Shown: one piece after another, positions 5,893-33,509 of the stretch | How the letters are laid out: every line of letters starts with the position of its first letter | How positions within the stretch are numbered: position 1 is the stretch's first letter | Assembly: GCA_001793155.1 (NCBI GenBank) | Contig: MGHI01000026.1 | Coordinates: 271-64,270, forward strand | Reading direction: 5' to 3' | From: Candidatus Woesebacteria bacterium RIFCSPLOWO2_01_FULL_39_61 | GTDB taxonomy: Bacteria > Patescibacteriota > Microgenomatia > UBA8517 | DNA: 64,000 nucleotides | Notes under the pieces: generated by a model | Database searches by the model: none | The model's input: only the letters and a program-made list of their open reading frames with translations | Told to the model about the DNA's origin: nothing | Program-made: the position numbers and the translations under genes

Positions 5893-6012
5893 TATGACAT
5901 TCTCCCCGCTACTTATGTGCGGGGTTTCTCTTCCAAAAGAGAATGACATATCAGAGTTCGATTCATCTCTGGGTCAATTGCCCAGAGTTTTCTCGAGATC
6001 TGCTATAAAATC
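5893..6012 (+). repeat. Structured repeat element, copy A: ATGACATTCTCCCCGC…GCGGGG hairpin + U-tract, ATGACATAT box, CTCTGGG…CCCAGAG hairpin + UUUUCUCG
   Basis: About 80% identical over about 115 nt to 13853..13972. Also related to the minus-strand copy at 33414..33509. The hairpin arms differ between copies while the stems stay paired. Confidence 0.55.
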
Positions 6013-6142
6013 TTAAAGATCTAAAACGACTATTAATTTTACAATTTCAGAGAAATCTGCTGTCCTTTGAAAAAGGAATTTACATCTGATTTATTTTTTC
6101 TTTGTCTACCTTTCTTTTGGGAAAAGAAAGGTAGAGTTAAGG

Positions 6143-7390
6143 TTATGCTCCGCAACTCCCTCCGCTCTTACCTCCATATGGTAATGGGCCGACTTTCTGA
6201 TTTAATTTTGCGGCGCCCTGACCTGAAGAATACTCCGAGCTTAAGACCAGTTTTGCATCGACTTTATCCCAGTTTATTCCCTGTCGGGCAAAGTATGTTG
6301 CGATTGTTAAATAATTTTGGGGAAACCAAAAAGAGTTCAACTTCAATACATTTTTGTAAATTTCCTCATCTGATATTCCCTTAGAAACCATTAACTCGAT
6401 TGCGGCGAGGGCTGCCATGCCGTGATTACAATCGGGAAAGGCAGTGTGATTTCCACAACATGGTCTATAAACATTTTCCGCTATTTCCATAACTTTCTTC
6501 TGCTGCTCCGAGGTAAGGGAAACGATATCGTGCTTATTGTAATGGTCCATCGCATTCCCGCGCGCCAGAGTCCAACCCCCTGTCGATGCAAAATTTCCGA
6601 CTTTTGCTTTATTCTCCTTGCCCATCGGTCCAATCTCGTAAACTAAACTTTTCTGCGCAAGCCCCAAGGCCCATAAAAGGTCGACGACGAATTGACCATT
6701 CTTACTATTTATACTGATCATTTGATCGCTATTACCGGCAAAGACTTGTTTTTCGGAATCTCCCATTGCAACAGCTTTCTCAAATTTCAGTTTATCAATT
6801 GCACCTAACTCAACTAATTTCGGAGCTATATCTCCCCAAGAGATCGGAAGCTCAAATCCTTCTTGCGGTAAAACCGTCTCGGGTAGCTTTGTTAAATCCA
6901 AAAGTGCATAGTTTTGTATTGTCCACTCATCCATACCGCCCTCGAGGTGGCGTATATTTTTATAGCCCGTACTCTTCAATGTCGCCAGAGCCTCAGCGCT
7001 CATTCTTCCTGTTTTACAATAAAGAATAATGGGTGTTTCCTTATCTTTTGGAAGCTTATCGCTGTTGGCAACCATTAAGTCGTAGTCAATGAATAAATCG
7101 GTCTTTTCAATCTCCCCTTCGTAAGGGGTGTGAACATTAATTAAAATCGGATTTGCCCCCTGGCTTGTCTTTGCATCAAGTTCACTTTTAAGATCTTTGG
7201 CTGATATTTCTTCTTCTTTTGAAACTCTCACTGATTTCACCTCTGTCCAGGGGAAACTCAACTCCCCTGCGTTTTTCCCCAACCAAAAGCCGATAGAAAG
7301 AAGCATCAGAAAAATCCCGAGTGTAAAGATCTCTCTATTTTTCTTGACAAATTTTTTGTAAGTTTTAATTCTAACTTTTGATAAAACCAT
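6143..7390 (-). CDS. Membrane-anchored rhodanese (sulfurtransferase) domain protein fused to a Cys-rich C-terminal domain of unknown function
   Basis: N-terminal TM helix. Rhodanese active-site loop YCKTGRMS (CX4R). C-terminal CCGNHTAFPDCNHGMA … SGGSCGA. Sits in the CsoR-headed operon. Confidence 0.65.
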   Translation of the reverse strand: MVLSKVRIKTYKKFVKKNREIFTLGIFLMLLSIGFWLGKNAGELSFPWTEVKSVRVSKEEEISAKDLKSELDAKTSQGANPILINVHTPYEGEIEKTDLFIDYDLMVANSDKLPKDKETPIILYCKTGRMSAEALATLKSTGYKNIRHLEGGMDEWTIQNYALLDLTKLPETVLPQEGFELPISWGDIAPKLVELGAIDKLKFEKAVAMGDSEKQVFAGNSDQMISINSKNGQFVVDLLWALGLAQKSLVYEIGPMGKENKAKVGNFASTGGWTLARGNAMDHYNKHDIVSLTSEQQKKVMEIAENVYRPCCGNHTAFPDCNHGMAALAAIELMVSKGISDEEIYKNVLKLNSFWFPQNYLTIATYFARQGINWDKVDAKLVLSSEYSSGQGAAKLNQKVGPLPYGGKSGGSCGA

Positions 7391-7414
7391 AGGTTTATCC
7401 CAAATCTTTAAAAT

Positions 7415-7981
7415 TTAAATATAATAATTTATGAGAATATATACTCCGATACTTGCTAGAGTTACAGATCCCAAACTAAATGCCATAGACTGGTAGGGGA
7501 AAAGAGATTTACCGTTTTTTCTTTTTATAAATATGTTTCCGATGTCCACCAAATAAAAAACCGCAGACCCCAAAATCATCCCAAAGGTTAGCTTATCCAA
7601 GCCAAAGATATTATCCATTCTTATTATTAAATTAAATCGATAGAAAGACCAAAGTGTTACAACAAAAATAGTTAGGTATATAAAAAATCCGACGAAACGG
7701 TTAAAGAAAATCTTATTTTTTTGTCCTAAGTATCTTAATAGCCAAAACGCGCTTGCTCCCAAAAGCGCTCCAATCCAAATTCCGGTGATGGAATCGTCCA
7801 CTCCGACCCAACGAGTCAAAGTTATCCCCGCCGCGGCTCCCGCAACACAGAGTGGACAGTGTGCTTGGATTACCCTGGGAAATCCAAAAAATATAACATT
7901 TATAACGATTATAAAAGTTATGACGCAACTTAAAGTTGCGACATATCGAACTTTGTTCGCTATAATAATTGTCTTTCTCAT
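7415..7981 (-). CDS. Polytopic membrane protein with a CPLC motif in the first extracytoplasmic loop
   Basis: Five or six predicted TM helices. C42-P-L-C45 only; no second Cys pair, so not a canonical DsbB. Overlaps neighbours by 4 nt (operon). Confidence 0.4.
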   Translation of the reverse strand: MRKTIIIANKVRYVATLSCVITFIIVINVIFFGFPRVIQAHCPLCVAGAAAGITLTRWVGVDDSITGIWIGALLGASAFWLLRYLGQKNKIFFNRFVGFFIYLTIFVVTLWSFYRFNLIIRMDNIFGLDKLTFGMILGSAVFYLVDIGNIFIKRKNGKSLFPYQSMAFSLGSVTLASIGVYILINYYI

Positions 7982-8487
7982 TTAACAACCACACCATTAA
8001 ATTTAAGCTCTTTTATCCCTGCTGGATCACTAAATGTTAAAAAAACTGATCTGTCAACAGGACCTGCTCCCTGTGGACCATGTGCTGCAGGATCAAAACG
8101 AACAATAGTCTTCCCTGTTGCCCCGGCGCCGATTTCAACATTTACAGAGGGGTTTTTATCACCGTGTCCCTCCATTCCGAAAAATTTAGTAGCCTCGCCT
8201 CCAATTTCAAATGAAGCTTTTGTACACATACAAGAGGTGGTAATTTTCTTTATTATCAACGTCTTATCGGTAGTATTTTTTATCTCGTATTCTTTGGTTA
8301 CAAGACCTCCGTTTATAGGTACATTTCCCAAGTCATAATTACCCGGATTGACCTCGATCCCTACCGCGTCTCCCAGGATTTGAGAATCTTGGGAGCTTTC
8401 AACTTGAGTGTTATCTTTCCCTTGCAAAAAAATAAAACCAAAAATAAGCAATATCGTTACTCCGATAGTAATAATTAAAGGTTTCAT
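7978..8487 (-). CDS. DUF1573-like secreted protein with an SCMCT motif
   Basis: Signal-anchor N-terminus. TTSCMCTKA resembles the DUF1573 CGCT signature (from memory). Beta-rich. Confidence 0.5.
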   Translation of the reverse strand: MKPLIITIGVTILLIFGFIFLQGKDNTQVESSQDSQILGDAVGIEVNPGNYDLGNVPINGGLVTKEYEIKNTTDKTLIIKKITTSCMCTKASFEIGGEATKFFGMEGHGDKNPSVNVEIGAGATGKTIVRFDPAAHGPQGAGPVDRSVFLTFSDPAGIKELKFNGVVVK

Positions 8488-8490
8488 GGT

Positions 8491-8781
8491 TTAACTTTCC
8501 GATTTGTTAAAAACATCCAGTATTTCATTTACTAACCTATTGTTTTTACCCCCATCTTTTTTAATTTCAGCCAAGACACAACCCCGCAGATGACCATCAA
8601 GTACCAACTCGTCAACTTTCTTTAATGCCGACTGGACTGCTTGGGATTGATGTATAACATCAATGCAATACTTATCATCAGCGACCATCTCGATTATTTT
8701 CTCCAGGTGACCTTTTGCAATCACAAGTCGGTGAAGAATTTTATTTTTAGTTGGTTCCTTCGTATATAAACGTGTGTTCAT
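8491..8781 (-). CDS. csoR: CsoR-family copper-sensing transcriptional repressor
   Basis: 96 aa. Cys in KYCIDV plus H-x3-C in LDGHLRGC gives the C-H-C Cu(I) ligand set of CsoR (DUF156 fold). Operator-like palindrome immediately upstream. Confidence 0.8.
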   Translation of the reverse strand: MNTRLYTKEPTKNKILHRLVIAKGHLEKIIEMVADDKYCIDVIHQSQAVQSALKKVDELVLDGHLRGCVLAEIKKDGGKNNRLVNEILDVFNKSES

Positions 8782-8791
8782 AATTTTCTAC

Positions 8792-8808
8792 ATCCCCCGT
8801 GGGGGGAT
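8792..8808. promoter_or_regulatory. Candidate CsoR operator: ATCCCCC-GTG-GGGGGAT palindrome in the csoR/8928 divergent promoter
   Basis: C-tract/G-tract inverted repeat. Resembles known CsoR operators such as B. subtilis copZA TACCC…GGGTA. Confidence 0.5.
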
Positions 8809-8927
8809 ATGACTATCATACAACTTTTATTCCGGCTGTCAATCTCCTATATCGTCTTTAATAAAAAATCTACTTTTTATTCTAAAAATTTGGTATGCTA
8901 TACCAATCATTAAGAGGTAAATTAAAC

Positions 8928-9923
8928 ATGAATCAAGTTTGGTTGGCATTTATAACGGGTTTAACCACAGGTGGAGTTTCCTGCTTTGCAATTCAGGGGG
9001 GATTGCTTGCATCAAGTCTTTCGAATCAGCAAAAAGATAACCAAAAAAACGCGGTTATTGTTTTTCTTTCCTCGAAACTTGTAGCTTACTCAATCCTGGG
9101 AATAATTTTAGGAGCTTTAGGTTCCACTCTGGTTATTTCTCCCAAAATTCAGGGTCTCATGCAAATCTTTGCTGGTCTTTTTATGCTGGCTACAGTAGGA
9201 AAACTCCTTAATATTCATCCCTTATTCAGATACTTCACATTAACCCCACCTAAGGCGATTTTCAGAATTGTTCGTTCAAAAAGCTTGGATTCGGGCTTGT
9301 TTTCGTCTTCAACCCTGGGATTTTTAACCGTGCTTATACCCTGCGGGGTCACACAAGCAATGATACTTCTTTCTGTTGCTTCCGGAAGTGCGCTATACGG
9401 TGGATTAATTCTGGCGGCATTTGTAATAGGAACATCACCGGTATTTTTTGCGCTCGGAATCGCCTCGGGGGAAATATTAAAAAGAAATTCACTTAAATAT
9501 CTTGCCGCTTTAGCTATTTTTATTCTCGGAGTAATTTCGATTAATACCGGCCAAATACTTCGGGGCTCCGTTCACACCCTACAAAATTACTACGCCGCAG
9601 CAACCGGAAATTTGTATTCAAAAAATTCCAAACTCGTGGCAGGGGTATCTGCATCCGGGAAGCAAGAGGTCGAAATTAAGGTTACAAGCGGGGGTTATCA
9701 GTCAAATATTCAAACCTTAAAAGCGGGAGTACCTGTTTCTCTTACCCTCGTTTCCCAGAATGTAAGCAGCTGTGCCCGCTCATTCACGATTCCGGAATAT
9801 AATATCTCAAAAGTTCTACCCCAAACCGGAGTTTCAACGGTCGAATTCACACCAACGAAAAGAGGCAGACTAACCTATACCTGCAGTATGGGGATGTATA
9901 CGGGATATTTTGAGGTAATTTGA
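8928..9923 (+). CDS. Polytopic membrane protein fused to a C-terminal cupredoxin-like domain (track start 8895; ATG 8928 has the RBS AAGAGGT)
   Basis: About six TM helices, with single Cys in TM1 and a PCG in a later TM. The C-terminal about 90 aa carries YTCSMGMYTGYFEVI, as in 5024..5383. Confidence 0.55.
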   Translation: MNQVWLAFITGLTTGGVSCFAIQGGLLASSLSNQQKDNQKNAVIVFLSSKLVAYSILGIILGALGSTLVISPKIQGLMQIFAGLFMLATVGKLLNIHPLFRYFTLTPPKAIFRIVRSKSLDSGLFSSSTLGFLTVLIPCGVTQAMILLSVASGSALYGGLILAAFVIGTSPVFFALGIASGEILKRNSLKYLAALAIFILGVISINTGQILRGSVHTLQNYYAAATGNLYSKNSKLVAGVSASGKQEVEIKVTSGGYQSNIQTLKAGVPVSLTLVSQNVSSCARSFTIPEYNISKVLPQTGVSTVEFTPTKRGRLTYTCSMGMYTGYFEVI

Positions 9924-9924
9924 T

Positions 9925-10122
9925 ATGACAAAAAAGACTTACAAGGTTAAAGGAATGGATTGCGATGCCTGCGCAAAAATGATCGAGCTGGATTTGGAAG
10001 ACCAAAATATAAAGGCGTCATGCAACTATGCAAAGGAACTTTTGGAAGTTGAATTAACGGACGATAAAGACGAAGAGAAAGTTAAAAATATTGTAAAAAA
10101 CGGCGGATACGAACTTGCTTAA
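9925..10122 (+). CDS. copZ: Heavy-metal-associated (HMA) copper chaperone
   Basis: 65 aa. GMDCDAC metal-binding motif. RBS GAGGT. Confidence 0.8.
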   Translation: MTKKTYKVKGMDCDACAKMIELDLEDQNIKASCNYAKELLEVELTDDKDEEKVKNIVKNGGYELA

Positions 10123-10127
10123 GATCT

Positions 10128-11270
10128 TCAGTTATTTGAAATGTTCTCAAGAGATACTTGAGCCTTTTTAAAATATTTGTTGTAGGCTAGAGCTTGCTCA
10201 AATTCATTTTTTGCCAAATCTTTTTTCCCTTGATCTAAATATATTTCTCCTCTTATTTGGTAAAGTTCGGAATAAGCTCTGTTTCCATTTTCCAAAACTT
10301 TTGCGATAATCGTAAATACTCGATCGTATTTTCCCAGCTTTTGATAAGATTGAATAGGTTCTATCTGGTACCAAAGCATCCGTTTTGGCAGACGATCTTC
10401 AACCTTTTCAAAAGCTGTGACTGAATTTTGGTAATCCTCAAGGTGATAGTAAGCAGTGGACATATTAAACCAGGGATAAACACTATCTTGGGAAAGTTGA
10501 CTTTCCCTTTCAGCTCGCTCTAGTGCATTCTCCCAAGCAACTTTTTCATCTATCTCTGAACCTAATATTGCTTCGACTAAACTTTCCTGTTCCTGCTTAT
10601 AAACAATGATGTAAGCATAATTAAAAGGTTGCCAGAGCGATAAAAAGTCATAATATGAAAATTTCATATTAGGTCCTTCGTAGGAATCATCTTGAATAAT
10701 TACTTTCTTTGATTCATCAAATCCTCTCACAATCCTGAAATGTCCTATATCCTCATTAACGTGCAGCCAGGTTTTTACTACAACAGGAATTCCATTGGTG
10801 GTAAATTTTTTCAGAAGTTCTATATCCCCGTTAACCCGTCCAGTTGCTTCAAACCCATATTCTTTCACCCAGTCCACAAATTCGTAAGTGAAAATCGTCT
10901 TATCGTCATTGTCTCCTTTTTGGTTTTGGTAAGGCCGCATTTTATCTGCCAGCTCGGATTGTGAAACGTTTCTTCCGTACCAGCCTAAAACCATCGATAA
11001 AGTCGCCGGTCCGCAGTTATTGAAAGTCTGATAGATATGACGGGGATTAGTTACAAGCGCCGAATTTCCCGGTTTTTTTATTCCAGCTGAGCTTTGAGCG
11101 TTACCTGAATCCTGGAGTTCTCCAATAGTCGGAGTTATTTCTTTCCTGACATCCGTAACAAATTTTGTCTCAATAGCTGGACTCGGCCTGTTTGTCCAGA
11201 AAAATACGCCTCCAGTAATAAGGATTGCTGCGGCAACAGAAAATACTAATAATCTTTTCATCATCCCCAA
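10128..11270 (-). CDS. Membrane-anchored C39-like (papain-fold) peptidase domain protein with C-terminal TPR repeats
   Basis: NNCGPATLSMVL Cys motif plus downstream His. C-terminal helical repeats with the TPR-like pattern (…YYHLEDYQNSVTAF…YLDQGKKDLAKNEFEQALAYN). Confidence 0.5.
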   Translation of the reverse strand: MGMMKRLLVFSVAAAILITGGVFFWTNRPSPAIETKFVTDVRKEITPTIGELQDSGNAQSSAGIKKPGNSALVTNPRHIYQTFNNCGPATLSMVLGWYGRNVSQSELADKMRPYQNQKGDNDDKTIFTYEFVDWVKEYGFEATGRVNGDIELLKKFTTNGIPVVVKTWLHVNEDIGHFRIVRGFDESKKVIIQDDSYEGPNMKFSYYDFLSLWQPFNYAYIIVYKQEQESLVEAILGSEIDEKVAWENALERAERESQLSQDSVYPWFNMSTAYYHLEDYQNSVTAFEKVEDRLPKRMLWYQIEPIQSYQKLGKYDRVFTIIAKVLENGNRAYSELYQIRGEIYLDQGKKDLAKNEFEQALAYNKYFKKAQVSLENISNN

Positions 11271-11344
11271 ATTATACTTGAAGGTAACAAGTTCGCATCA
11301 TTTTCAGGAAAAATTCAGCTTAATTGGTTATTATTTATCCCACA

Positions 11345-11373: not shown

Positions 11374-11472
11374 GTCAGATGTACTTGATTTAAGACTAGT
11401 TTCAGAATTCCCTAGTCCATAGGACTAGGGATGAATGAACCTGGGCTAGAAGCCTCGCCGAAGGCGTATCTT

Positions 11473-11508
11473 AAAAAAATGCCTCAGACCTCTGTGTCTG
11501 GGGAGGCT
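11473..11508 (-). terminator. Rho-independent terminator of the 11516..12058 gene (minus strand)
   Basis: GCCTCAGAC…GTCTGGGGAGGC imperfect stem adjacent to A7 on the plus strand. Confidence 0.5.
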
Positions 11509-11515
11509 TCACTTC

Positions 11516-13432: not shown

Positions 13433-13436
13433 CAGG

Positions 13437-13874
13437 TTAAGAGCGGTGTTTTTCCAATTTAATAATTATTGAAAGAAGTACAACTGAAAGGCTGACGGAG
13501 GTTAAACCAAACATAAAATAAATTGTTTGCAACCAAGAAATCTGACGGACAATATGCATTTCTGCAAAAATCCATATAAGTAATGTACAACCCGCTATGG
13601 CAGTCCATTGGATTGCGTTTGCGTCTTTTTTTGATAAAAGTATGGAGGCGATAAAATGCGTACTTCCAATTACGCTTACTAAAATAATTCCAGGTTCGAG
13701 ATAAGTTGGAAAGGGCGATTGCGGTAGCCAGTCAATGGGTATTCCAAGTCTGAATGTAGCAATAAGCCCAAGTCCCCCGACGATCGCGGAAAGCCCGACC
13801 AGAAATTCAAAAAAGGTAAGAAAATTATATGTGAATTTGTATAACTTCTTCACTATGACATTCTTCCCGTGCAA
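13437..13874 (-). CDS. Hypothetical polytopic membrane protein (start uncertain)
   Basis: Four predicted TM helices. The track start at 13874 is TTG inside repeat copy B. An in-frame GTG at 13848 or a later start is possible. Confidence 0.35.
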   Translation of the reverse strand: MHGKNVIVKKLYKFTYNFLTFFEFLVGLSAIVGGLGLIATFRLGIPIDWLPQSPFPTYLEPGIILVSVIGSTHFIASILLSKKDANAIQWTAIAGCTLLIWIFAEMHIVRQISWLQTIYFMFGLTSVSLSVVLLSIIIKLEKHRS

Positions 13875-13972
13875 ATAGCACGTGGTCTCCCTTCTAAAGA
13901 GAAAGACATATCAGAGTTCGTTTTATCTTCGGGCTATAAGCCCGGAGTTTTCTCGAAATCTGTTATAAATAG
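13853..13972 (+). repeat. Structured repeat element, copy B
   Basis: ATGACATTCTTCCCGTGC…GCACGTGG hairpin, GACATATCAGAGTTCG box, CGGGCT-ATA-AGCCCG hairpin + AGTTTTCTCGA. About 80% identical to copy A. Confidence 0.55.
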
Positions 13973-13991: not shown

Positions 13992-14405
13992 CTACTCTCT
14001 TATGGAGATCCTAAGTAAAAGTTCATCCAGACTCCTATAGAATTCTATCGATGGTCTTTCCCTATCAACTTTGTAGTTTTGAGTTAACTGATCAAAGAGT
14101 ACAGGTATTTGTTCTAAACTTTGGCTCCAATTCATGAGCTTGGTTTGAGCATACCTTCCACCAGGAATCGTCCAAGTTTGAAAACCTAAAAGTCCTGGAT
14201 TGTCGTCGGGAAAAAGAGAAACAGAAGACCAATATTCGAGACTCGGAGGCGATCCAAAAATTAACCCGTAAAACTTTCTTCCTTTTAAACCTGGCAATTT
14301 AGCTTCCAGTTTACTAAAAGCCTCGGTAGCTCCTGATGGACCGGTTTCCGATTTAATATACATAACCGGAATATCTTCCAAAACTTTTTCAACAATATTT
14401 ATCAT
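13992..14405 (-). CDS. GyrI-like small-molecule-binding domain protein
   Basis: About 137 aa. The pattern fits the AraC-effector-binding/GyrI-like fold (…GRKFYGLIFG…GGRYAQT…). Weak. Confidence 0.4.
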   Translation of the reverse strand: MINIVEKVLEDIPVMYIKSETGPSGATEAFSKLEAKLPGLKGRKFYGLIFGSPPSLEYWSSVSLFPDDNPGLLGFQTWTIPGGRYAQTKLMNWSQSLEQIPVLFDQLTQNYKVDRERPSIEFYRSLDELLLRISIRE

Positions 14406-18957: not shown

Positions 18958-19536
18958 ATGATACAAAAAGAGTATATTGGGTCTGGAGCAAATTGTGTAG
19001 ATTTCGCAAAAGAACATTTTTTAAGAACTTATGACAGGTGTGATGACCCTCTCTATGAGTACCACAAACGACACGTAAAAGAAGTTGAGAGATGGGCAAA
19101 GATTATTCTGAAAGATTTTCCCGATGCTGACGAAGAAGTTGTTTTACTTTCAGTCTGGTTACACGACATTGGTAGGTATAAGTACGATCAAAACACCGAT
19201 CATGCAATTAATTCTCAAACAGAATCCTTGAGATTTCTACCGAAAATTGGGGTTTCACCAGAAAAAACTCTTGCGGTCGCTCACTGTGTAAGGTCGCACA
19301 GAAATAAAGATATCGAGCCCCAAACACTTGAGGCCAAAATTCTAGCTGCTTCCGATTCTGCAAGCCATATGACCGATTTCCCCTATATTGTACTCATGGG
19401 GGAAGGAAAGAAGGATTACGTAAGGGCGAAAATTGAGAGAGACTATCGTGATATAGGCCTTATCCCAGGTGTCCAAGAAAAACTTACTCCCCTTTATACT
19501 GCATGGAAACACTTATTAGATGCTTTCCCTGAATGA
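18958..19536 (+). CDS. HD-domain phosphohydrolase
   Basis: H…HD motif (VWLHDIGR) plus downstream His and Asp. Confidence 0.7.
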   Translation: MIQKEYIGSGANCVDFAKEHFLRTYDRCDDPLYEYHKRHVKEVERWAKIILKDFPDADEEVVLLSVWLHDIGRYKYDQNTDHAINSQTESLRFLPKIGVSPEKTLAVAHCVRSHRNKDIEPQTLEAKILAASDSASHMTDFPYIVLMGEGKKDYVRAKIERDYRDIGLIPGVQEKLTPLYTAWKHLLDAFPE

Positions 19537-20047
19537 TTATTACTTCGAAAATCACAGCGTTCTTGACTTCGTTGATTCGAATCATCATAGTGGAAATATG
19601 ACACAAGTTTCGCGCTTCATGCTCAGGCCAGAGGTATGGGAAAAAATATTTGATTTATTTACGGATACATTCCTACGAATAAAAGATAAAAAGAGGTTGA
19701 ATAACTTTTTTGATAATTTTTTCTCCCCAACTGAAAAGATAATGCTTTCAAAAAGACTCGCTATTGCTGTGCTTCTTGCTAAAGGAAATGATTACGCATC
19801 AATCAAAAACACGATTAGAGTAACCGATGGAACGATCTCTAAAGTTAATCTATTACTTAAAAGTAACCGCGCAGGATTGAGACTTGCGGTTGAGGAGATT
19901 CTAAAAAGGGACGCTGGGAAAATTTTCTGGCAGGAAATCTCTGATATGCTTGATTTTCCTCGTAAAGGTGGAAATTGGTCCGAGATGGGAAAAAGAAAAT
20001 TTCAAAGACGAAGAAAGATACAAGACCTAAAATCCGGATTGAGTTAA
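19520..20047 (+). CDS. TrpR/YerC-like helix-turn-helix protein (likely start ATG 19598)
   Basis: EKIMLSKRLAIAVLLAKGNDYASIKNTIRVTDGTISKV resembles the Trp-repressor-like HTH. Palindromic sites sit at both ends of the gene. Confidence 0.45.
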   Translation: MLSLNDYYFENHSVLDFVDSNHHSGNMTQVSRFMLRPEVWEKIFDLFTDTFLRIKDKKRLNNFFDNFFSPTEKIMLSKRLAIAVLLAKGNDYASIKNTIRVTDGTISKVNLLLKSNRAGLRLAVEEILKRDAGKIFWQEISDMLDFPRKGGNWSEMGKRKFQRRRKIQDLKSGLS

Positions 20048-20051
20048 CTCA

Positions 20052-20079
20052 CTACGATGATTCGAATCATCGTAGTGAT
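20052..20079. promoter_or_regulatory. 28-bp perfect palindrome CACTACGATGATTC|GAATCATCGTAGTG
   Basis: Perfect inverted repeat directly after the TrpR-like stop. Shares its core TGATTCGAATCATC with 19569..19590, upstream of the probable start. Confidence 0.4.
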
Positions 20080-23168: not shown

Positions 23169-25697
23169 TTGCCTGTGAGGAAAAATTTTATAATATTACT
23201 TTCAGCTTCTACGTTAGTAACAATATTTGCCCTTTTGACTTCAATTTCTGTCCAAAACAGATCCCTTGCTTCAAATCTGCAAACTAACGAAACCCTGGGT
23301 ATAGAAAATTATCTGGCTGAAGGTTCTTGTACCGAACCATCAGGCGGTTGCGGAAGTGGTTATTATTGGAACGGTTCAACGTGCAGCTGTCAGTCAAGCT
23401 GTCAGGAACCCTCTGGCGGATGTGGAACAAACTACTATTGGGATTCAGCTAGCTGTTTGTGTAAACCCTATCCCACTACTTCAACTTGCCAACCTCCTTC
23501 AAACGGTTGTGGTACGAATTATTACTGGGATTCCAATTCTTGCTCCTGCAAATCCAGCACATCTTATTGCAGTCCACCGTCAACCGGGTGCGAAACGAAC
23601 AAATATTGGGACTATGCCTCGTGCTCTTGTGTGTCCTCAAGTAGCGGGAGTGGAAGTGGAGGTACCTCGTCTTGTACTGCTCCTTCATCAGGATGCGGGA
23701 CTAATTATTATTGGGACTCGGGGAGTTGTAGTTGTAAATCCTACTCAACGTGCTCACCTCCCTCGACTGGCTGCGGTTATAACTACTACTGGGACTATTC
23801 TTCCTGCAATTGTAAATATTATTCGTCTTCGACTTCGTCCTGTCAACCTCCGTCATCTGGGTGTGGTTCTAACTCTTATTGGGATTCATATACTTGCTCG
23901 TGTAAATCAAGCTCTGGCACGAGTTCTTGTTCTCCTCCTTCCGCAGGATGCGGGACAAACAACTATTGGGATTCGTACAGCTGTATGTGTAGGTCCCAAT
24001 ACTCAACCTGCTATCCGCCAAGTAGTGGCTGCGGAACAAATAGTTATTGGGACTCCTACTTTTGTTCCTGCAGGCCGTACACCACAACATCCACGAGTTA
24101 CTGCTCACCTCCATCGAGCGGATGTGGCTATAACTATTATTGGGATCAATATTCCTGTTCGTGTAAATATTACACGTCCTCGTGTGTACCTCCACCTGCT
24201 GGGTGTGCTGCTAATAACTATTGGGACTATTATTCATGCAACTGTAAAGAATATCAATCCGGTTCAACCTCAAGCTGTGTTCAACCAGCGACAGGTTGTG
24301 GATATAACTACTTTTGGGACTCCTCATCGTGTTTATGTAAACCCAATCCCAATATAACTAGCTGTCCGCAACCGACTTCAGGCTGTTCAGCAAATGCATA
24401 TTGGGATTCATATTCATGTTCTTGTAAATCTACATTTCCATATTATAAACAGGAAAATTTCGACAGATTCGCTTATGAATCAACTGAAAGAATATCCTGC
24501 GTAAAATCGCTTCTTTCATCATACGATTATGAAAGATTACGCTACTTTATTCCGACGGGTTCTCTTGAACAAAATGAAATATATAATTTAGGAGGAAAGG
24601 TGAGTGCTTGCTGGACAACTCCCCAAACATCAACTCAAGTTTCCATAACACCCTTAACTTATAAGTCTCCACTGGAATCTGAAAGCTGCATTATAAAATC
24701 TCTGGGCGAGACTGCCTATAAAGAAATATACAAAGGCGTCAGAAACCCAACCTATACCGAACATTTAAAATACGGGGTTTGTAATAAAGGAGAAGTAAAA
24801 AATAGCGTTATTACGTATTACACGAAAGAAGAGAAAATTCCAAAAGGAACAGATGCGTGTCTAAGGACAGTCCTGGGGGGCGGAGTTTACGAAAAAGTCA
24901 GAGCAGGCAATACAGATGTTCCTCACGATCTCCGTGGTAAGGTAGACAGGTGCTTTGGCGTAAATCCACAAGCTTTCGAACAAGCAAGGGTATATAAGGC
25001 TCCCGATCAGGTCAGGAGTTGTTTAAACGATACTCTGGGTGAAACTAGATTTAATGAAATAAATTCCGGTGCCTCCCAACCGACTGAAGAAGAAAGAGTA
25101 AAAGGCTCTATCTGCTTTAGTAAACTTAACACTAACCAATCAAGGTTCCTTCCCCCGCCCCCGGAGGAAGTTCACTATTTAGAGACTGACCCAAATATTG
25201 TGGAACTTTCGGATGCTGTGCAAGAGACTCAAAAAGTCAACACTCAGAGTTTGGGAGGGAAATTGGTATTTGCCGGTAAATCATTGGCGAATTCTAATGT
25301 CTATATTTATATCTATTCAACCGAACCCATTGTTGTAACGACAAAAGCCGATGATAACGGTGATTGGGTCTATGAACTTAACCAACCGCTGAATGGTGAA
25401 AAACATATCGCTTATGCAGCTACAAGGACTAGTGAAGGAAAGTATGTAAGATCTTCAGTTTTTGATTTTACGGTTGTTGCTGCCGAGACGGATTTGCAAA
25501 ACCAGCTCGTCAACGAGGCTCAATTAACCCAAGAGACTGGCAGGGGTTTTATAGCAAGAGTCCTTGTACTGGCAATAGTGCTTTGTGTTACCATCATTTT
25601 AATTCTCAGTTCCTTCAAAGCATTAAGAAAAAAGCACGGAATTCAAAAAACTGAAGATAATCAGAAAGTCAGCCAGAACCAACCACTGCAAAACTAG
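23169..25697 (+). CDS. Cell-surface protein with 13 tandem Cys-rich CxxPSxGCGxNxYWDSxSCxCK repeats, 4 CxxxLGE-type repeats, an Ig-like domain and a C-terminal TM anchor
   Basis: Signal peptide. Repeats of about 24-30 aa, each with four Cys at C-x5-C-x9-C-x-C and an invariant YWD. A PPPPEE linker leads to a YIYIYS…DDNGDW Ig-like module. C-terminal TM plus basic tail. Confidence 0.7.
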   Translation: MPVRKNFIILLSASTLVTIFALLTSISVQNRSLASNLQTNETLGIENYLAEGSCTEPSGGCGSGYYWNGSTCSCQSSCQEPSGGCGTNYYWDSASCLCKPYPTTSTCQPPSNGCGTNYYWDSNSCSCKSSTSYCSPPSTGCETNKYWDYASCSCVSSSSGSGSGGTSSCTAPSSGCGTNYYWDSGSCSCKSYSTCSPPSTGCGYNYYWDYSSCNCKYYSSSTSSCQPPSSGCGSNSYWDSYTCSCKSSSGTSSCSPPSAGCGTNNYWDSYSCMCRSQYSTCYPPSSGCGTNSYWDSYFCSCRPYTTTSTSYCSPPSSGCGYNYYWDQYSCSCKYYTSSCVPPPAGCAANNYWDYYSCNCKEYQSGSTSSCVQPATGCGYNYFWDSSSCLCKPNPNITSCPQPTSGCSANAYWDSYSCSCKSTFPYYKQENFDRFAYESTERISCVKSLLSSYDYERLRYFIPTGSLEQNEIYNLGGKVSACWTTPQTSTQVSITPLTYKSPLESESCIIKSLGETAYKEIYKGVRNPTYTEHLKYGVCNKGEVKNSVITYYTKEEKIPKGTDACLRTVLGGGVYEKVRAGNTDVPHDLRGKVDRCFGVNPQAFEQARVYKAPDQVRSCLNDTLGETRFNEINSGASQPTEEERVKGSICFSKLNTNQSRFLPPPPEEVHYLETDPNIVELSDAVQETQKVNTQSLGGKLVFAGKSLANSNVYIYIYSTEPIVVTTKADDNGDWVYELNQPLNGEKHIAYAATRTSEGKYVRSSVFDFTVVAAETDLQNQLVNEAQLTQETGRGFIARVLVLAIVLCVTIILILSSFKALRKKHGIQKTEDNQKVSQNQPLQN

Positions 25698-29064: not shown

Positions 29065-29089
29065 AATTATTATTTTAGCCTAAACTGCA

Positions 29090-30625
29090 CTAAAAATCAG
29101 GATCTTTTGGTCGATACTGCAGTGCCTCGGCTAAATGGTTGACGACGATTTGTTTTTCGTTAGCTAAATCAGCTATAGTTCGAGCGATTTTAATGACTTT
29201 AAAATAACTGCGGGCGGACAAATTCATTGAAGCCGTTGCGGATATCATCATTGTGCGACACTCGGGGGGAAGGGAGCAATAACTTTTAACGTCTCTTGTC
29301 GCCATTTCGGAATTTGATTTAATTTTCGTCCCTTTAAATCTTGCTATTTGAAAATCACGGGCTCTCTGTACTCTTTTTTGGATAATTTTTGAGGATTCTT
29401 TCTTCACATCCTTATCTTTCTCGACTAATTTTTGAGTTTCAACCGACGGAACATCTACGTGCAAATCTATTCTGTCTAAAATAGGACCGGAAACTCTTTT
29501 TTGATAACGAGAGATGGCTCCAGGTAGACATTTGCAGGCACGCTTGGAATCACCATAATAGCCACAGGGACAGGGATTGCTGGCGGAAACTAATAAAAAT
29601 TGTGCAGGATAAGTTACCGAACCTTTCGCCCGGGAAATCGTCACCACTCCATCCTCCATCGGTTGCCTGAGGGATTCCAGAACATGCCTTGGAAACTCTG
29701 GGAATTCGTCCAAAAACAAAACCCCTCGGTGGGCTAAAGACACTTCGCCGGGGGAAGGATTTGTACCTCCTCCGATTAAACCTATCCGGCTGGTAGTATG
29801 ATGAGGACTTCTAAAAGGACGGGTAGTAAAAATCGATTGCCCCTGCGGTAGATTACCGGTAATTGAATATATTTTTGTAACTTCCAATGCTTCGTCTTCC
29901 GTTAATGTCGGTAAAATCCCAGGCAGTGCCCGTGCGAGCATAGTTTTTCCACTACCCGGGGTTCCCTTCATAAAAATGTTGTGACCACCCGCCGCTGCGA
30001 TTTCCGCGGCTCTTTTTGCTTGTTCCTGACCGATAATTTCTCTAAAATCAAACTCCGCCTCTGTCGTTCTTAATAGTTCTGATAGTTTTGATTTTTGCGA
30101 AGGAAGAATTTTATTGGTGCCGTTGAACATTCGGATTAGTTCAAGAAGTGAACCAACGGCATAAACATCCACCTCCGAAACAATAGAAGCTTCCTTTTCA
30201 TTAACTTTAGGAATAAATATTTTTTTATATTTTTTTTCCTTTGCAAGATAAGCCATAGGTAAAATACCGTTTGTATGACGCAAACTTCCATCCAAGGAGA
30301 GCTCTCCAAAAAACAGACTGTCGGAAACATCCGGTGCAATTTGTCCCGAGGCAATCAGTATCCCTAATGCTATAGGAAGATCGTACGAAGGTCCTACTTT
30401 GGGTAAATCCGCTGGGGCGAGATTCACGGTTATTCTGGTTAGAGGAAAATCAGCCCCGGTATTTTTAATAGCTGAGCGCACCCTCTCTCTTGCTTCTTCC
30501 ACTGCCTTATCCGGTAATCCTACGATAGTGAGGCTGGGAAGACCTTGTTCGGCAACGTCTACTTCAACCTCAATTAAAGTTGCGGTCAGTCCAACGGCTG
30601 CCCCTGAAGTAATTTTTGCAAGCAT
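29090..30625 (-). CDS. comM: Mg-chelatase-like AAA+ ATPase, YifB/ComM family
   Basis: N-terminal Lon-like domain (GLPSLTIVGLPD). Walker A GTPGSGKT. Walker B. Typical 511-aa length. Confidence 0.9.
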   Translation of the reverse strand: MLAKITSGAAVGLTATLIEVEVDVAEQGLPSLTIVGLPDKAVEEARERVRSAIKNTGADFPLTRITVNLAPADLPKVGPSYDLPIALGILIASGQIAPDVSDSLFFGELSLDGSLRHTNGILPMAYLAKEKKYKKIFIPKVNEKEASIVSEVDVYAVGSLLELIRMFNGTNKILPSQKSKLSELLRTTEAEFDFREIIGQEQAKRAAEIAAAGGHNIFMKGTPGSGKTMLARALPGILPTLTEDEALEVTKIYSITGNLPQGQSIFTTRPFRSPHHTTSRIGLIGGGTNPSPGEVSLAHRGVLFLDEFPEFPRHVLESLRQPMEDGVVTISRAKGSVTYPAQFLLVSASNPCPCGYYGDSKRACKCLPGAISRYQKRVSGPILDRIDLHVDVPSVETQKLVEKDKDVKKESSKIIQKRVQRARDFQIARFKGTKIKSNSEMATRDVKSYCSLPPECRTMMISATASMNLSARSYFKVIKIARTIADLANEKQIVVNHLAEALQYRPKDPDF

Positions 30626-30644
30626 CTACTATTACTATACTAAA

Positions 30645-30875
30645 CTAAAAAAGTAGAGTGTAGATAAAAACAAGAAGAAATATTATCAAAATTGCTGTAG
30701 TGTTAAATACCCACCTATATCTTTTAATTTTTCCCTCGTCGTCTTTTAAAAACTTTTTATATCCGCGATAAGATATCTCAACAACAAAAACACTAAAGGC
30801 AAGATATCCAATACTCGCTATTGTCCTAAAAACTGTAATTAGTTCTTCGATGGTAGATCTTGACATCGAACTCAC
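30645..30875 (-). CDS. Small hypothetical membrane protein
   Basis: Two TM helices. Confidence 0.3.
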   Translation of the reverse strand: MSSMSRSTIEELITVFRTIASIGYLAFSVFVVEISYRGYKKFLKDDEGKIKRYRWVFNTTAILIIFLLVFIYTLLF

Positions 30876-31111
30876 TTCAAAAAATCCCAGTGATCAAAAA
30901 TCAACGTAAAGGCGTAAAGAAATAATAAAAGCGGAATTATTCCTGAAATAACAAAAAGCCACCAAAACGACCTTGCCTTCTCTCGGAAAATTGTATTAAA
31001 GGCTTTGTGATTAATATTAATTACTAAAGTCGTCACCGCGATAAAACCAGTAATTGCACCATAGCGCACAAACTCTAAAAACTCTCTGGGAAACACATCC
31101 GGGTTAATCAT
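30872..31111 (-). CDS. Small hypothetical membrane protein
   Basis: Two TM helices. 4-nt overlap with the neighbour. Confidence 0.3.
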   Translation of the reverse strand: MINPDVFPREFLEFVRYGAITGFIAVTTLVININHKAFNTIFREKARSFWWLFVISGIIPLLLFLYAFTLIFDHWDFLK

Positions 31112-31216
31112 TAGTTTGATTTTCTCACAAACAAATTCTCAACTCAAACCTCAAACAGTTGCGAATTTGAATCAATTCTTGCTTCGATTAAAAAAATTTG
31201 TCATGCTGAAAGATAT

Positions 31217-32854
31217 ATGAAGCTACCCGAACTGGAAGAACCAGTTGCCTATTTTTGTAGCGAATTTGCACTAGATAATGAACTTCCTATATATTCCGGT
31301 GGGCTTGGTATACTCGCCGCGGACATACTAAACGCCGCCGCCTTACAACATTACCCAATGGTCGGAATAGGAATTCTCTATAAGGGTAAGGAGTTCATGC
31401 AGCATATAACCGCTGACGGAAAGGAAGAAAAACGCGATTCAGAATTTGATCACGATACTTCATTTTTAAGACCGACGACTGTAAACGGTGAAACCATAGT
31501 TTTTACCCTGCCTTTGGAAAACCAGGAAGTTAAAGTAAAATCCTATCACTTTAGACTTTCGGATAAAACGATTGTTTTTCTTCTATCAACAGACATCGAT
31601 GGAAATCCTCCCGAGTGGATTAATGACATGAATAAGCTTTATGGCGGAGATATGAACAGCCAATTGCGACAACAAATACTTCTGGGAGTGGGTGGAGTTA
31701 TGTTATTAAATACACTAGGAATCAGACCGCGAAAATATCACATAAACGAAGGAAGATCGGCATTTCTTATTTTCGAAGAAACCCATATCCTGATGAAAGA
31801 GGAAGACCTTTCTTTTGAAGCGGCCTGGGCGAAAGCTAAACAAAAAATTGTCTATACCAACCATACTCTGATAGCTGCAGGAAATCCTACTTACTCGCCG
31901 GAGTTGGTTAAGGATTGGATAAAATCTATTGCCAATAAGCTCGGTGTGGAAACCGAATCGCTTATTAAATATGGACTTCAAGATTCTCAATCTTTTAGCA
32001 TTACCCTTTTTGCTCTCAATACTTCTGCAAAACAATCTGCCGTCAGCAAAGTTCATGGCGAATATGCCCGAAGGGATTGGCCTGACTATAACTGGATAGC
32101 TATAACCAATGGTGTACACCTTCACCGCTGGCAGGATAGTGATTATCGGCACCCAGATCTAACCGATCAGGAATTATGGAGTGAGCATTTGGTCAAGAAA
32201 CAAGAATTGGTAGACTCGGTAATAAAACGCACAGGATTTGGGTTTGATCATAAAAGACTTATCATCTCTTGGGCAAGAAGACTGGCTGAATATAAACAAC
32301 CAACCGCGATATTTTCCGACATTCAAAGGTTAAAAAGGATACTTTCTAATCCCGACCGTCCGGCTCAACTTCTTTTCGCGGGAAACTCTCACTCCGCTGA
32401 TCCTAATGCGAAATCCATCATCGAAAATATAATTAAAATTTTTTCTAAAGATCTATCAGGTTACGCAATTTTTGTCCCGAACTATAATATATCTTTGGCC
32501 AACCATCTCGTCTCCGGAAGCGATATCTGGCTAAATACTCCCAAAGGCACGCTGGAAGCTTCGGGCACCTCGGGCATGAAGGCTCTTGCCAATGGAGTTT
32601 TAAATTGCACTGTCATAGACGGCTGGACCTATGAAGTCGACTGGACGGATATAGGTTGGACACTTGACCCCAAAAATATAGCCGAGAGTTTCTATAATAC
32701 TCTTGAAAATGAAATTCTCCCTTTATATTACAAAAGGGGCGCCGACGGACTTCCTTATGATTGGATAAAGAGAATGAAAAAGTCTATAGAGATTTCGCCG
32801 AAATTTTCTGCCGAAAGGGTACTTGAAGATTATAAGAAGTATTTATATAGTTAA
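31217..32854 (+). CDS. Alpha-glucan phosphorylase (GT35 family, short archaeal/bacterial type)
   Basis: EASGTSGMKALANG PLP-lysine motif. 545 aa. Confidence 0.8.
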   Translation: MKLPELEEPVAYFCSEFALDNELPIYSGGLGILAADILNAAALQHYPMVGIGILYKGKEFMQHITADGKEEKRDSEFDHDTSFLRPTTVNGETIVFTLPLENQEVKVKSYHFRLSDKTIVFLLSTDIDGNPPEWINDMNKLYGGDMNSQLRQQILLGVGGVMLLNTLGIRPRKYHINEGRSAFLIFEETHILMKEEDLSFEAAWAKAKQKIVYTNHTLIAAGNPTYSPELVKDWIKSIANKLGVETESLIKYGLQDSQSFSITLFALNTSAKQSAVSKVHGEYARRDWPDYNWIAITNGVHLHRWQDSDYRHPDLTDQELWSEHLVKKQELVDSVIKRTGFGFDHKRLIISWARRLAEYKQPTAIFSDIQRLKRILSNPDRPAQLLFAGNSHSADPNAKSIIENIIKIFSKDLSGYAIFVPNYNISLANHLVSGSDIWLNTPKGTLEASGTSGMKALANGVLNCTVIDGWTYEVDWTDIGWTLDPKNIAESFYNTLENEILPLYYKRGADGLPYDWIKRMKKSIEISPKFSAERVLEDYKKYLYS

Positions 32855-33282
32855 CTGCCTCTCCCAAGATATTTTTTAACCTTCTCTACAACCTGTTCCG
32901 GGGTTTGCATCGCTTTAACCAAATATTCCTTTACACCGAGTTTTAAGGCCCTTTGTCTTTCCTCCTCTTCCGCCAGGTTGGTGAGGGCAACAACCGGGAT
33001 ATTTACTCCCTTGGCATTTTGTCTCAAGTGTTCCAAAAAATCAGTGCCGGACATTCGGGGCAACATGATGTCCAAGAGAATAATATCCACCTGATTTTTC
33101 AAAGAGACGTCTAAAGCTTCTTCCCCGTCTTTTGCGTTGAGGACTTTAAACCCCTCAAAAGTAAATTTCTCGGTGTACATCTTTAAAAGAACCGGGTCGT
33201 CTTCGACTATCAAAATTACTTGTTGGTTTTTATCAACAGCTGGTTGTACCTGTTGGTCAGTGGGCGGTTGTGTGTTATCCAT
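32851..33282 (-). CDS. Single-domain response regulator (CheY-like receiver)
   Basis: ILIVEDDP…LDIMLPRMSG…KEYLVKA receiver motifs. No output domain. Confidence 0.8.
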   Translation of the reverse strand: MDNTQPPTDQQVQPAVDKNQQVILIVEDDPVLLKMYTEKFTFEGFKVLNAKDGEEALDVSLKNQVDIILLDIMLPRMSGTDFLEHLRQNAKGVNIPVVALTNLAEEEERQRALKLGVKEYLVKAMQTPEQVVEKVKKYLGRGS

Positions 33283-33413
33283 ATTTAACTCACTTAATCT
33301 TAAGTAAAATCGTTCTCTTTTTCAAACTGTAAAAAATTAACTTGAACAATGTTACCATACTATTATCCCTTGTTCGGGTTAAATTAGCACTACCATAATA
33401 TTATAGAAAATTT

Positions 33414-33509
33414 CAAGAAGACCACGGGCTTCAGCCCGTGGATGAATTGAACTTTTATATGTCATCCTCCTTAGGGAAACCCCGCCTTTTAAGGCGGGGA
33501 GGATGTCAT
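33414..33509 (-). repeat. Structured repeat element, copy C (minus orientation)
   Basis: The reverse complement reads ATGACATCCTCCCCGCC-TTAAAA-GGCGGGGTTTCCCT…GGATGACATATAAAAGTTCAATTCATC-CACGGGC-TGAA-GCCCGTG-GTCTTCTTG. It is colinear with copies A and B. Confidence 0.5.

Follow-up and report, generated by a model that had tools for sequence, protein, structure and literature searches.

A two-domain structured repeat of Candidatus Woesebacteria, probably a small non-autonomous mobile element

The ends of MIRU repeats overlap the stop and start codons of adjacent operon cistrons. CPR/Patescibacteria have very small genomes, in which mobile DNA is usually said to be scarce. Rickettsia palindromic elements (RPEs) are small palindromic repeats inserted in-frame within genes, and the SPRITE repeat is named in the same paper (PMC10969869). 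Here we describe a repeat that is restricted to a subgroup of Candidatus Woesebacteria (Patescibacteria/CPR) and is previously undescribed as a family. With a probability of roughly 70%, it is a small non-coding, non-autonomous, structure-dependent mobile repeat that is RPE-like.

The window, which refers to the whole 64-kb stretch of DNA analysed, contains three intergenic look-alike segments at the positions claimed in a preliminary description, with a block order common to all three. Their 23-nt core GACATATMARAGTTCRWTTYATC has 3 matches in the window against 0.02 expected. The conserved span extends through TGYTATAA, slightly beyond the spans first stated, to 5894-6009, 13855-13969 and 33400-33509. 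A covariance model of the element, R1, was built and scored over the whole window, and the features are as follows.

5894..6009, minus strand: copy A, full element; R1 111.8 bits; fold z -4.95 and -5.44 (two strands)
5894..6009, minus strand: sequence of copy A, 5'-TTATAGCAG...ATGTCAT-3'
5967..5987, plus strand: apical hairpin of the long-hairpin domain of copy A (hairpin 2), then TTTTCTCG; terminator-like on the plus strand only (terminator scan); covarying helix 2
5904..5924, no strand assigned: hairpin 1 of copy A (CCCCGC/GCGGGG), one arm of the three-way junction; covarying helices 3 and 5
5894-5900 and 5943-5949: ATGACAT boxes of copy A, whose mutual pairing closes the junction
13855..13969, minus strand: copy B, full element; R1 104.9 bits; fold z -4.3 and -4.6
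13927-13947: hairpin of copy B, terminator-like on the plus strand
33400..33509, plus strand: copy C, full element; R1 123.7 bits
33422-33441: hairpin of copy C, terminator-like on the minus strand
11388..11513, plus strand: diverged fourth copy; R1 31.8 bits, E 1.8e-5 (whole window)
about 6044..6062, minus strand: short remnant (CAGCAGATTTCTCTGAAAT) like a long-hairpin domain with an internal deletion, lying about 35 nt upstream of copy A; weak evidence, read from sequence
57500..57550, minus strand: candidate decayed three-way-junction remnant at rnpB; R1 only 13.7 bits, flank similarity in the alignment; tentative

The fourth copy runs as TTTCAGAA-hairpin-GGGATGAATGAAC, followed by a three-way junction closed by AGCCTC/GAGGCT. 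Its MFE is -53.7 kcal/mol (z -5.0), with a two-domain fold as in the full copies. A short remnant similar to the one near copy A adjoins the L050 copy. The search for further copies proposed in the preliminary description gave this fourth copy in the window and relatives in other assemblies, for about 45 distinct copies of 105-117 nt. The hosts are all Woesebacteria/Patescibacteria assemblies, with 2 to 7 or more copies per genome.

Either strand of the element adopts a two-domain fold. A long hairpin forms domain 1, with a conserved lower stem (UAUA-R-CAG..UUCRA / UYGAA..CUG-A-UAUG) and a freely varying apical hairpin, whose sequences are wholly different between copies. In domain 2, the paired ATGTCAT boxes close a three-way junction that carries two more variable hairpins, and the box helix holds an invariant U.U (or A.A) mismatch. 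Added hairpins are tolerated at loops or the junction only (L013, L029, L049, L052).

Compensatory changes occur in 21 of the 34 base pairs. Among 34 non-identical relatives, 96.2% of cells are paired vs 83.7% in shuffles, and double-change cells number 151 vs 46; none of 500 shuffles came up to what was observed. Slid controls are 34-50% paired, and the search patterns themselves imposed part of the core conservation. The earlier observation that hairpins 1 and 2 differ in sequence between copies yet stay paired is statistically strong with these relatives, and three further helices covary: CAG/CUG, UUCRA/UYGAA, and ATGACAT box with box. The fold is under selection for pairing and is not a duplicate in passive decay.

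This covariation had also been taken as the mark of a functional RNA. Both strands fold at z -4.3 to -6.7, the strand opposite to that of the preliminary description folds slightly better in 25 of the 34 copies, and G-U and A-C mismatches are balanced (15:12, with one small hairpin left out). Because the fold is equal on both strands and these mismatches are balanced, covariation does not mark the strand first described as RNA, although selection on pairing holds. A scan of the whole window with Rfam release 15 at gathering thresholds gave 0 matches, and around copy A noise only at E<10, in agreement with the earlier statement that no known RNA family could be assigned.

The element has exact termini. 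At each end, a step of one base takes the information content from about 0.2 bits up to 1.7-2.0 bits; the ends read TTATA(A/G)CAG... and ...GGAGGATGTCAT. There are no terminal inverted repeats, as the reverse complement of either end is unlike the other end. Nor is there a target-site duplication, since flanking direct repeats of at least 3 nt occur in 0-4 of 42 copies at every boundary offset, the same as in mismatched-pair controls. T is weakly preferred 5' of TATA. The preliminary description had set against its own reading a known REP/MITE element with terminal inverted repeats and target-site duplications; a repeat of this type is essentially what we found, but it belongs to no known family and lacks both hallmarks. 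The DNA around copies, about 0.6 Mb, showed no recurring transposase next to them and no mobilising enzyme, autonomous parent element or parent insertion sequence.

Gain and loss of copies have occurred between related genomes. In the orthologous operon of L059 (CsoR-DUF1573-p188-rhodanese-DUF5676-cupredoxin-CopA), whose proteins are 52-78% identical in amino acids to those of the window operon, only a 38-nt spacer lies at the site of copy A, and a clean insertion would not account for all the differences between this empty site and the filled one. Among strains, no insertion polymorphism with an exactly matching empty site was recovered; the contigs of the window population are all identical. 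Copies A and C have counterparts in other genomes, at non-syntenic positions, that are 90-94% identical to them, but with each other they share only 70-79% identity. Copies have recently multiplied in one genome, GW2011_GWA1_39_21, with at least 6 that are mutually 91-98% identical.

Full copies also lie inside protein-coding genes. First, one (121 bits) is in-frame in a PMT_2 glycosyltransferase gene, where it makes a 34-35-aa insertion absent from 9 homologues. Second, one interrupts tsaE in-frame at a point whose flanking residues are separated by 4 aa in PDB 1HTW, and is absent from homologues P0125 and P0127. Third, one is in-frame within the Glyco_transf_4 domain (GT4 glycosyltransferase) of an NCBI-annotated Woesebacteria protein and is absent from homologues. 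Each of the three insertions measures 108 or 111 nt, which is precisely the TATA...GTCAT span. In-frame insertion into conserved genes adds a tolerated peptide of about 36-37 aa. Over the family, a sense-strand open frame is present in 14 of 34 copies only, not above the shuffle expectation.

We infer that the element would move or be copied in trans in the form of a folded single strand of DNA or RNA, and that a putative enzyme would recognise the conserved basal helices, the junction and the mismatch. If the enzyme reads these parts, the apical stems need only pair. As a bolder proposal, which we entertain only tentatively, the element may serve a structure-guided CPR mobility system as its substrate or RNA component, or the fold may be a new functional RNA motif spread by such a system. 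There, the enzyme would act on a folded single strand by reading its basal helices, its three-way junction and its U.U/A.A mismatch, and insertion would proceed without inverted repeats or target duplication, coding sequences included.

Hairpin 2 is terminator-like on one strand in all three window copies (terminator scan; G+C-rich hairpin with a U tract); hairpin 1 is followed by about 3 U only. Of the two hairpin-plus-U-tract modules originally described, hairpin 2 with its U tract looks like an intrinsic terminator. On the strand of the preliminary description, hairpin 2 with UUUUCUY would act as an intrinsic terminator; because it would terminate on one strand, insertions in operons and genes would survive mainly in the opposite orientation. 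The confirmed intragenic copies are all in the non-terminating orientation. On the terminator-like strand of hairpin 2, a gene end precedes the element in only about 40% of copies.

Now and then a copy or remnant may turn into a useful terminator, rnpB offering an example. The RNase P RNA gene lies at 57565-57962 on the minus strand, and the hairpin beside it is CCCCGCC CAAAA GGCGGGG plus TTTTCCTTTT, on the same strand. The CCCCGCC...GGCGGGG stem occurs only twice in the window vs 0 expected; together with the flank similarity, this makes real the resemblance behind the claim that the rnpB terminator reuses the hairpin-1 module. The 57500..57550 hairpin appears to serve as the terminator of the RNase P RNA gene and is probably, if tentatively, a decayed remnant of the three-way-junction domain.

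Copy A lies between a rhodanese-domain gene (6143..7390, minus strand) and a DUF5676 gene (5602..5871, minus strand), inside the CsoR...CopA copper operon as claimed. Copy B lies between a 137-aa gene (13992..14405, minus strand) and a 138-aa membrane-protein gene (GTG at 13853), which is followed by a GSDH-family gene. Copy C lies between divergent genes, assigned by Pfam families, for a response regulator (32851..33282, minus strand) and a 206-aa secreted/membrane protein (33565..34185, plus strand). The small secreted or membrane-protein gene said to adjoin each copy is thus present in all three cases. Among the genes beside copies, no flanking gene family recurs. Under the mobile-repeat reading, then, copies A, B and C inserted beside membrane-protein genes and are not regulators dedicated to them.

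Counting against the mobile-repeat reading are the lack of a mobilising enzyme or parent element in the DNA around copies, of inverted repeats and target duplications, and of a cleanly matching empty site. In addition, copy numbers per genome are low for a transposon, the orientation bias (21 vs 10) is a trend only, and very strong cross-species conservation of unpaired and basal nucleotides with turnover of apical stems also fits a host-selected RNA. Such a cis-acting RNA, an intercistronic processing or stability element or a unidirectional terminator or insulator, would be spread by recombination and kept for neighbour-gene expression, with mobility incidental. Strong purifying selection on structure and junction nucleotides, the terminator-like hairpin 2 and the apparent termination of rnpB by a remnant fit this alternative. 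So does the context of many ->E-> copies (E, element), which fill the whole spacer with the upstream stop codon within TTATAA; in many of these cases the downstream start comes 2-30 nt after GGAGGATGTCAT, so that GGAGG could be a ribosome-binding site. However, copies occur in both orientations and in all four gene arrangements (->E->, 17-21; <-E<-, 9-10; ->E<-, 8-9; <-E->, 7), and the distance to the next start codon varies from 0 to about 300 nt. Copies lie within coding sequences, and the orthologous copper operon has none. Promoter-like sites flank copy C on both sides, outside the element, seemingly placing it outside both divergent transcripts. We consider a host-selected cis-acting RNA unlikely.

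It is also quite improbable that the element is a recombination or nicking site that acts as folded single-stranded DNA, as do integron attC and the HUH/Y1 hairpin ends of IS200/IS605 and REP-RAYT, although this is a narrower version of the mobile-repeat explanation and not a separate account. Its support is the lack of inverted terminal repeats and target duplications, the exact coincidence of the termini with the bases of the folded domains, the weak T preference, the invariant mismatch within the box helix, the three in-frame insertions of the exact span, and the mismatch balance that is expected with neither RNA strand selected. On the other hand, the apical hairpins vary freely in sequence, unlike the hairpins that TnpA or RAYT recognise, there is no attC-like pairing of one end with the other, and no integrase, Y1 or RAYT gene was seen beside any copy in the DNA around copies.

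The preliminary description itself took the segments as a family of trans-acting small-RNA genes of about 100-120 nt, read from ATGACAT to TATAA with an internal and a terminal terminator. The two hairpin-plus-U modules on that strand, with hairpin 2 passing the terminator scan, agree with this, as do the strong covariation and an orientation independent of neighbours, which free-standing genes would show. No conserved promoter precedes the ATGACAT end, though, where conservation starts abruptly and which lies 0-70 nt from, or overlaps, the start or stop codon of the neighbouring gene. With hairpin 1 poor in U, mixed orientation, non-syntenic loci, an empty orthologous site, in-frame intragenic copies and the better-folding opposite strand, small-RNA genes are very improbable, and that claim is given up.

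A riboswitch or 5' leader on the reverse-complement strand for membrane or copper-homeostasis genes, with the 3'-end GGAGGAUG sequestered by CAUCCUCC, is scarcely tenable: copies A, B and C each have a gene just downstream on that strand, an SD-like GGAGG is paired in the box helix and copy A precedes DUF5676-cupredoxin-CopA, but context already contradicts it, as orientation is mixed, about 40% of copies are followed by a convergent gene end or by nothing, downstream genes are mutually unrelated, the orthologous copper operon lacks the element, type I copies carry GAGAA instead of GGAGG, intragenic copies exist and Rfam gave no riboswitch match.

If the mobile-repeat reading holds, a structured repeat spreads within CPR genomes, even into essential genes such as tsaE, where it adds a peptide. 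Rickettsia, an unrelated lineage that is likewise host-dependent and reduced in genome, offers a parallel in its "selfish DNA in protein-coding genes". The Woesebacteria repeat would be an unusually clean case of strong base-pair covariation without an RNA gene, a caution for covariation-based discovery of non-coding RNA. Its exact termini and conserved junction, together with the lack of inverted repeats and target duplications, suggest that mobilisation proceeds by an uncharacterised mechanism, one that can now be looked for. In annotation, the repeat accounts for unusual inserts of 36-37 aa and for extensions at the N or C terminus of Woesebacteria proteins, as well as for contig breaks where it occurs.

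Like classical MITEs (Correia/NEMIS, ERIC, RUP), the Woesebacteria repeat is short, non-autonomous, multi-copy and mostly intergenic, with subfamilies that span genomes. MITEs can likewise supply terminators, promoters and processing sites to neighbours and are present or absent between related genomes, as at the empty operon site and in the homologous genes here, but their defining terminal inverted repeats and target-site duplications are absent from this repeat. REP/BIME, RAYT-mobilised REPIN and IS200/IS605-derived palindrome-associated elements are also hairpin repeats of extragenic DNA that lack inverted termini and target duplications; compensatory changes keep the hairpins of REP/REPIN and IS200/IS605-derived elements, and mobilisation is thought to act on folded single-stranded DNA. 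REP hairpins, however, are 20-40 nt, sequence-conserved, marked by a 5' GTAG-type tetranucleotide and present in hundreds of copies, whereas in the Woesebacteria repeat apical hairpins vary freely, basal helices and junction are conserved, and RAYT/TnpA was not seen nearby.

In integron attC sites the two ends (R''/L'' and L'/R') pair with each other, and the sites stand after cassette ORFs, all oriented one way and beside intI; the ends of the Woesebacteria element lie in separate domains, unpaired with each other, and its copies are in mixed orientation and partly intragenic. A SPRITE also bears an intrinsic-terminator-like hairpin, and overlap with the stop and start codons of adjacent cistrons is shared with MIRUs, which are oriented consistently with transcription while the Woesebacteria repeat is not; the sequences and folds of both are unlike it. 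The RPE host is alphaproteobacterial (Rickettsiales) and not CPR, so that RPE is an analogue, likened by features and not by sequence, and the Woesebacteria repeat differs in its two-domain fold with a three-way junction, its extensive documented covariation and an open frame in only a minority of copies. In both, a non-coding repeat of about 100-150 bp with a stable palindromic fold, for which no transposase is known, lies between the genes of a reduced-genome, host-dependent bacterium and repeatedly in-frame within unrelated conserved genes (here PMT_2, TsaE and GT4), to which it adds a tolerated peptide.

The three intergenic segments singled out in the preliminary description are present as described, and their 23-nt core occurs three times in the window against 0.02 expected. 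The conserved span slightly exceeds the blocks listed there, and on the opposite strand to the one described (ATGACAT to TATAA), it reads 5′-TTATA(A/G)CAG ... ATGTCAT-3′. A covariance model of the element was run on the window and all fetched loci. It also recovers a diverged fourth copy in the window, which, folded alone, takes the same two-domain shape.

Copies of the element in the window with covariance-model scores
5894-6009, minus strand: copy A, 112 bits
13855-13969, minus strand: copy B, 105 bits
33400-33509, plus strand: copy C, 124 bits
11388-11513: diverged fourth copy, 31.8 bits (E ~2e-5)

Exact protein matches assign the window to Rifle-aquifer assemblies and to NCBI assembly GCA_001792385.1, a Candidatus Woesebacteria MAG. 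Among the fetched loci, the search yields ~45 distinct full copies, plus partial copies and copies bearing extra hairpins. When one genome per species was scanned for the pattern, the core proved restricted to Woesebacteria/Patescibacteria MAGs or probably mislabelled MAGs, each positive MAG holding from 2 to 7 or more, and a metagenome scan adds many more matches. The viral contigs examined gave a single chance match and lack the element. Its assignment to no known RNA family holds, as Rfam returned nothing relevant either for the whole window at gathering thresholds or for the surroundings of copy A at E<10. A tRNA/tmRNA scan gave no match, and searching the literature for CPR/Patescibacteria repeats or MITEs yielded nothing relevant.

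The fold was predicted by RNAalifold on 34 non-identical copies, and consists of two domains. Domain 1 is a long hairpin, in which the CAG/CUG pairing varies (C-G 29 / A-U 5; G-C 24 / A-U 9) as does the UUCRA/UYGAA pairing (A-U 21 / G-C 12), and its apex is a freely varying hairpin, the previously noted hairpin 2. In domain 2, the two ATGTCAT boxes pair with one another, with one varying pair (C-G 24 / U-A 9) and an invariant U·U mismatch, and close a three-way junction; the junction bears a small middle hairpin and the previously noted hairpin 1. Compensatory changes occur at 21 of the 34 pairs. The paired cells amount to 96.2%, compared with 83.7% for shuffled data (the observed value exceeded all 500 shuffles) and 34-50% when partners are slid, and double-change cells number 151 against 46 in the control. 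Insertions are confined to loops or the junction (loci L013, L029, L049 and L052). The original observation that sequence changes while pairing is kept was thus right, and stronger than its author knew; the structure is real and under selection.

The fold singles out neither strand. Whichever strand is folded, each window copy does much better than its shuffles (z −4.3 to −6.7), and mismatch cells outside the middle hairpin are balanced (G-U 15 versus A-C 12). The middle hairpin has a G-U excess of 34:4 on the strand opposite to that described; part of this excess is artefactual, as zero-length loops in the alignment were counted as pairs.

Some of the fetched loci show further arrangements. 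Truncated or internally deleted copies directly adjoin full copies, in tandem or nested, at L080 1-150, L050 4235-4260 and L016 652-753, and several contigs terminate within the element. Weak matches lie within genes at L083 7385-7508 and L048 5357-5499. The hairpin-1 loop of the L013 copy (4101-4272, minus strand) holds two tandem ~31-nt units (AAGCGAAGCTTGGCCAAAGAGTACTTTAGT), and a related GCCAAGC...CGC motif flanks an L014 copy (L014 about 5180-5230); these may represent a second small repeat family inserting into loops.

Full copies were found in-frame inside conserved genes from independent assemblies. L048 has a full copy (121 bits) in a PMT_2 glycosyltransferase gene, encoding a 34-35-aa segment (FYNSVQENPTLKGGDELNSDMSS...) missing from nine homologues. 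L067 has one in tsaE, where it separates residues that lie just four positions from each other in PDB 1HTW; it is likewise missing from homologues. An NCBI-annotated Woesebacteria GT4 protein contains the element peptide inside its Glyco_transf_4 domain, and two more proteins bear it, either within the chain or extending the N terminus. Each of the three in-frame insertions measures 108 or 111 nt, which matches the TATA...GTCAT span exactly and is consistent with the element inserting without duplicating its target, possibly 3′ of a T.

Genomes also differ in occupancy. The orthologous copper operon of L059, a locus from a related species (CsoR, DUF1573, p188, rhodanese, DUF5676, cupredoxin and CopA, with 52-78% amino-acid identity to the window) has a 38-nt spacer in place of copy A; at another position in L059, upstream of the csoR promoter, is a remnant comprising domain 1 only. 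The identity of copies A and C to non-syntenic copies in other genomes is 90-94%, against just 70-79% between the two, and six copies of GW2011_GWA1_39_21 are mutually 91-98% identical. When contigs matched by exact proteins were compared to find strain-level sites lacking copy A, B or C, all were identical.

The preliminary description had named copies of a known REP/MITE element as the alternative to a functional RNA. The REP/MITE-like character of that alternative largely stands, but the element matches no known family and lacks the features named: it has no terminal inverted repeats, no target-site duplication was found at 12 boundary offsets, and flanking direct repeats are no commoner than in mismatched controls. 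No transposase recurs beside the copies in the flanking loci examined.

The same description likened each copy to a small RNA; for a small RNA gene, and equally for a leader, the evidence is adverse. Conservation rises and falls within one base at the ends, from ~0.2 to 1.7-2.0 bits, and no conserved promoter lies outside the conserved span. At their ends, the copies touch or overlap the neighbors' stop codons (TAA in TTATAA, TGA in ATGACAT) or start codons. Orientation relative to neighboring genes is mixed (E, element; ->E-> 17-21, <-E<- 9-10, ->E<- 8-9, <-E-> 7), and across the copies examined the flanking proteins share no family and no neighbor gene recurs. The empty orthologous operon, the near-identical non-syntenic copies and the in-frame copies inside conserved genes also oppose the small RNA and leader readings.

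Readings of single features were also rejected. For the conserved TGYTATAA end as a promoter, the last hexamer position is unconserved, a −35 is absent on both strands and the TATA pairs with UAUG at the domain 1 base. For a small peptide gene, the second ATG is unconserved (AAG in copy B) and the frame shifts with hairpin length; nor is selection for an ORF through the element indicated, with 14 of 34 copies sense-open versus 28% in shuffles, no enrichment. A hammerhead, twister or other ribozyme core and the likeness of GTTCRATTC to a tRNA T-loop were inspected by eye, with no stem or Rfam match in support, and the presence of copies in tsaE would not be compatible with efficient self-cleavage.

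In addition, a 1022-nt ENA contig (P0124) has a TsaE fragment 98% identical to L067 through the inserted element, and the two diverge completely just past its 3′ end, by either recombination at the element or a chimeric assembly at the repeat. A boundary difference between L014 and L035, considered as recombination at the element, proved to be a simple 44-nt deletion. In the DUF1573 gene, a 45-nt in-frame indel polymorphism (window 8225-8269) separates the window from JGI contig L003 of the same population (153 versus 169 aa). Upstream of csoR, L059 has a TTGACA-type promoter followed by a palindrome, ATCCCCCCGTGGGGGAT, resembling a CsoR operator (5300-5345, minus strand); window csoR has a TTGACA-16-TATGAT site at 8842-8815 (minus strand).

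A terminator scan accepts hairpin 2 with UUUUCUY in each of the three window copies on the strand originally described. Co-directional gene pairs favor the non-terminating orientation, 21 versus 10, a trend only, and all confirmed intragenic copies have that orientation, which together suggest that the terminating orientation is counter-selected inside transcription units.

The remark that the hairpin-1 module is reused as the rnpB terminator has substance, since CCCCGCC...GGCGGGG occurs in the window only at copy C and at 57525-57543 (0 expected). The flanks of the latter resemble the three-way-junction domain, and its minus strand has the hairpin followed by TTTTCCTTTT, placed 20 nt beyond a divergent RNase P RNA. 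It is probably a decayed element remnant used as a terminator. The model gives it just 13.7 bits. The RNase P RNA gene (57565-57962, minus strand), apparently of a divergent CPR type, reaches just 42.9 bits with the Rfam RF00011 model, whose gathering score is 97, and is thus overlooked at curated thresholds.

The window has other repeats. ORF 23169..25697 (842 aa) contains ~12-14 tandem diverged coding repeats of 72-105 nt at 23325-24430 (plus strand), with a Cys-rich unit C..P...GCG.N.YYWD....C.C, and its product resembles a secreted or surface protein of repetitive type. Two stretches ~1.6 kb apart, 41599-41717 and 43245-43320, are 83-85% identical, with patterns AAGCTCTTTAACAAGT...TGTGTGT and ...GTTCACAAACCAAA.GG.GGT.TGCTGTG.AC, and may reflect duplication of regions lying upstream of paralogous genes. 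Two copies of a 27-nt sequence that includes the palindrome GATGATTCGAATCATC, separated by 485 nt (19566-19592 and 20050-20077), flank ORF 19520..20047 and align as both a direct and an inverted repeat.

In our view the best explanation, with a probability of roughly 70%, is that Woesebacteria harbor a new family of structured, RPE/MITE-like mobile repeats. From the earlier interpretation, the real and selected structure is retained and the small RNA genes are not. We conceive that the element could be copied as a folded single strand, with the conserved basal helices, junction and mismatch as the putative recognition surface. Such recognition would explain why these parts are strictly conserved even as the apical stems turn over freely. 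Among known elements, the Rickettsia palindromic element (RPE), which has inserted in-frame into many genes (PMC10969869), is the closest analogue; individual traits are shared with REP/REPIN, IS200/IS605-derived elements, SPRITE and MIRU.
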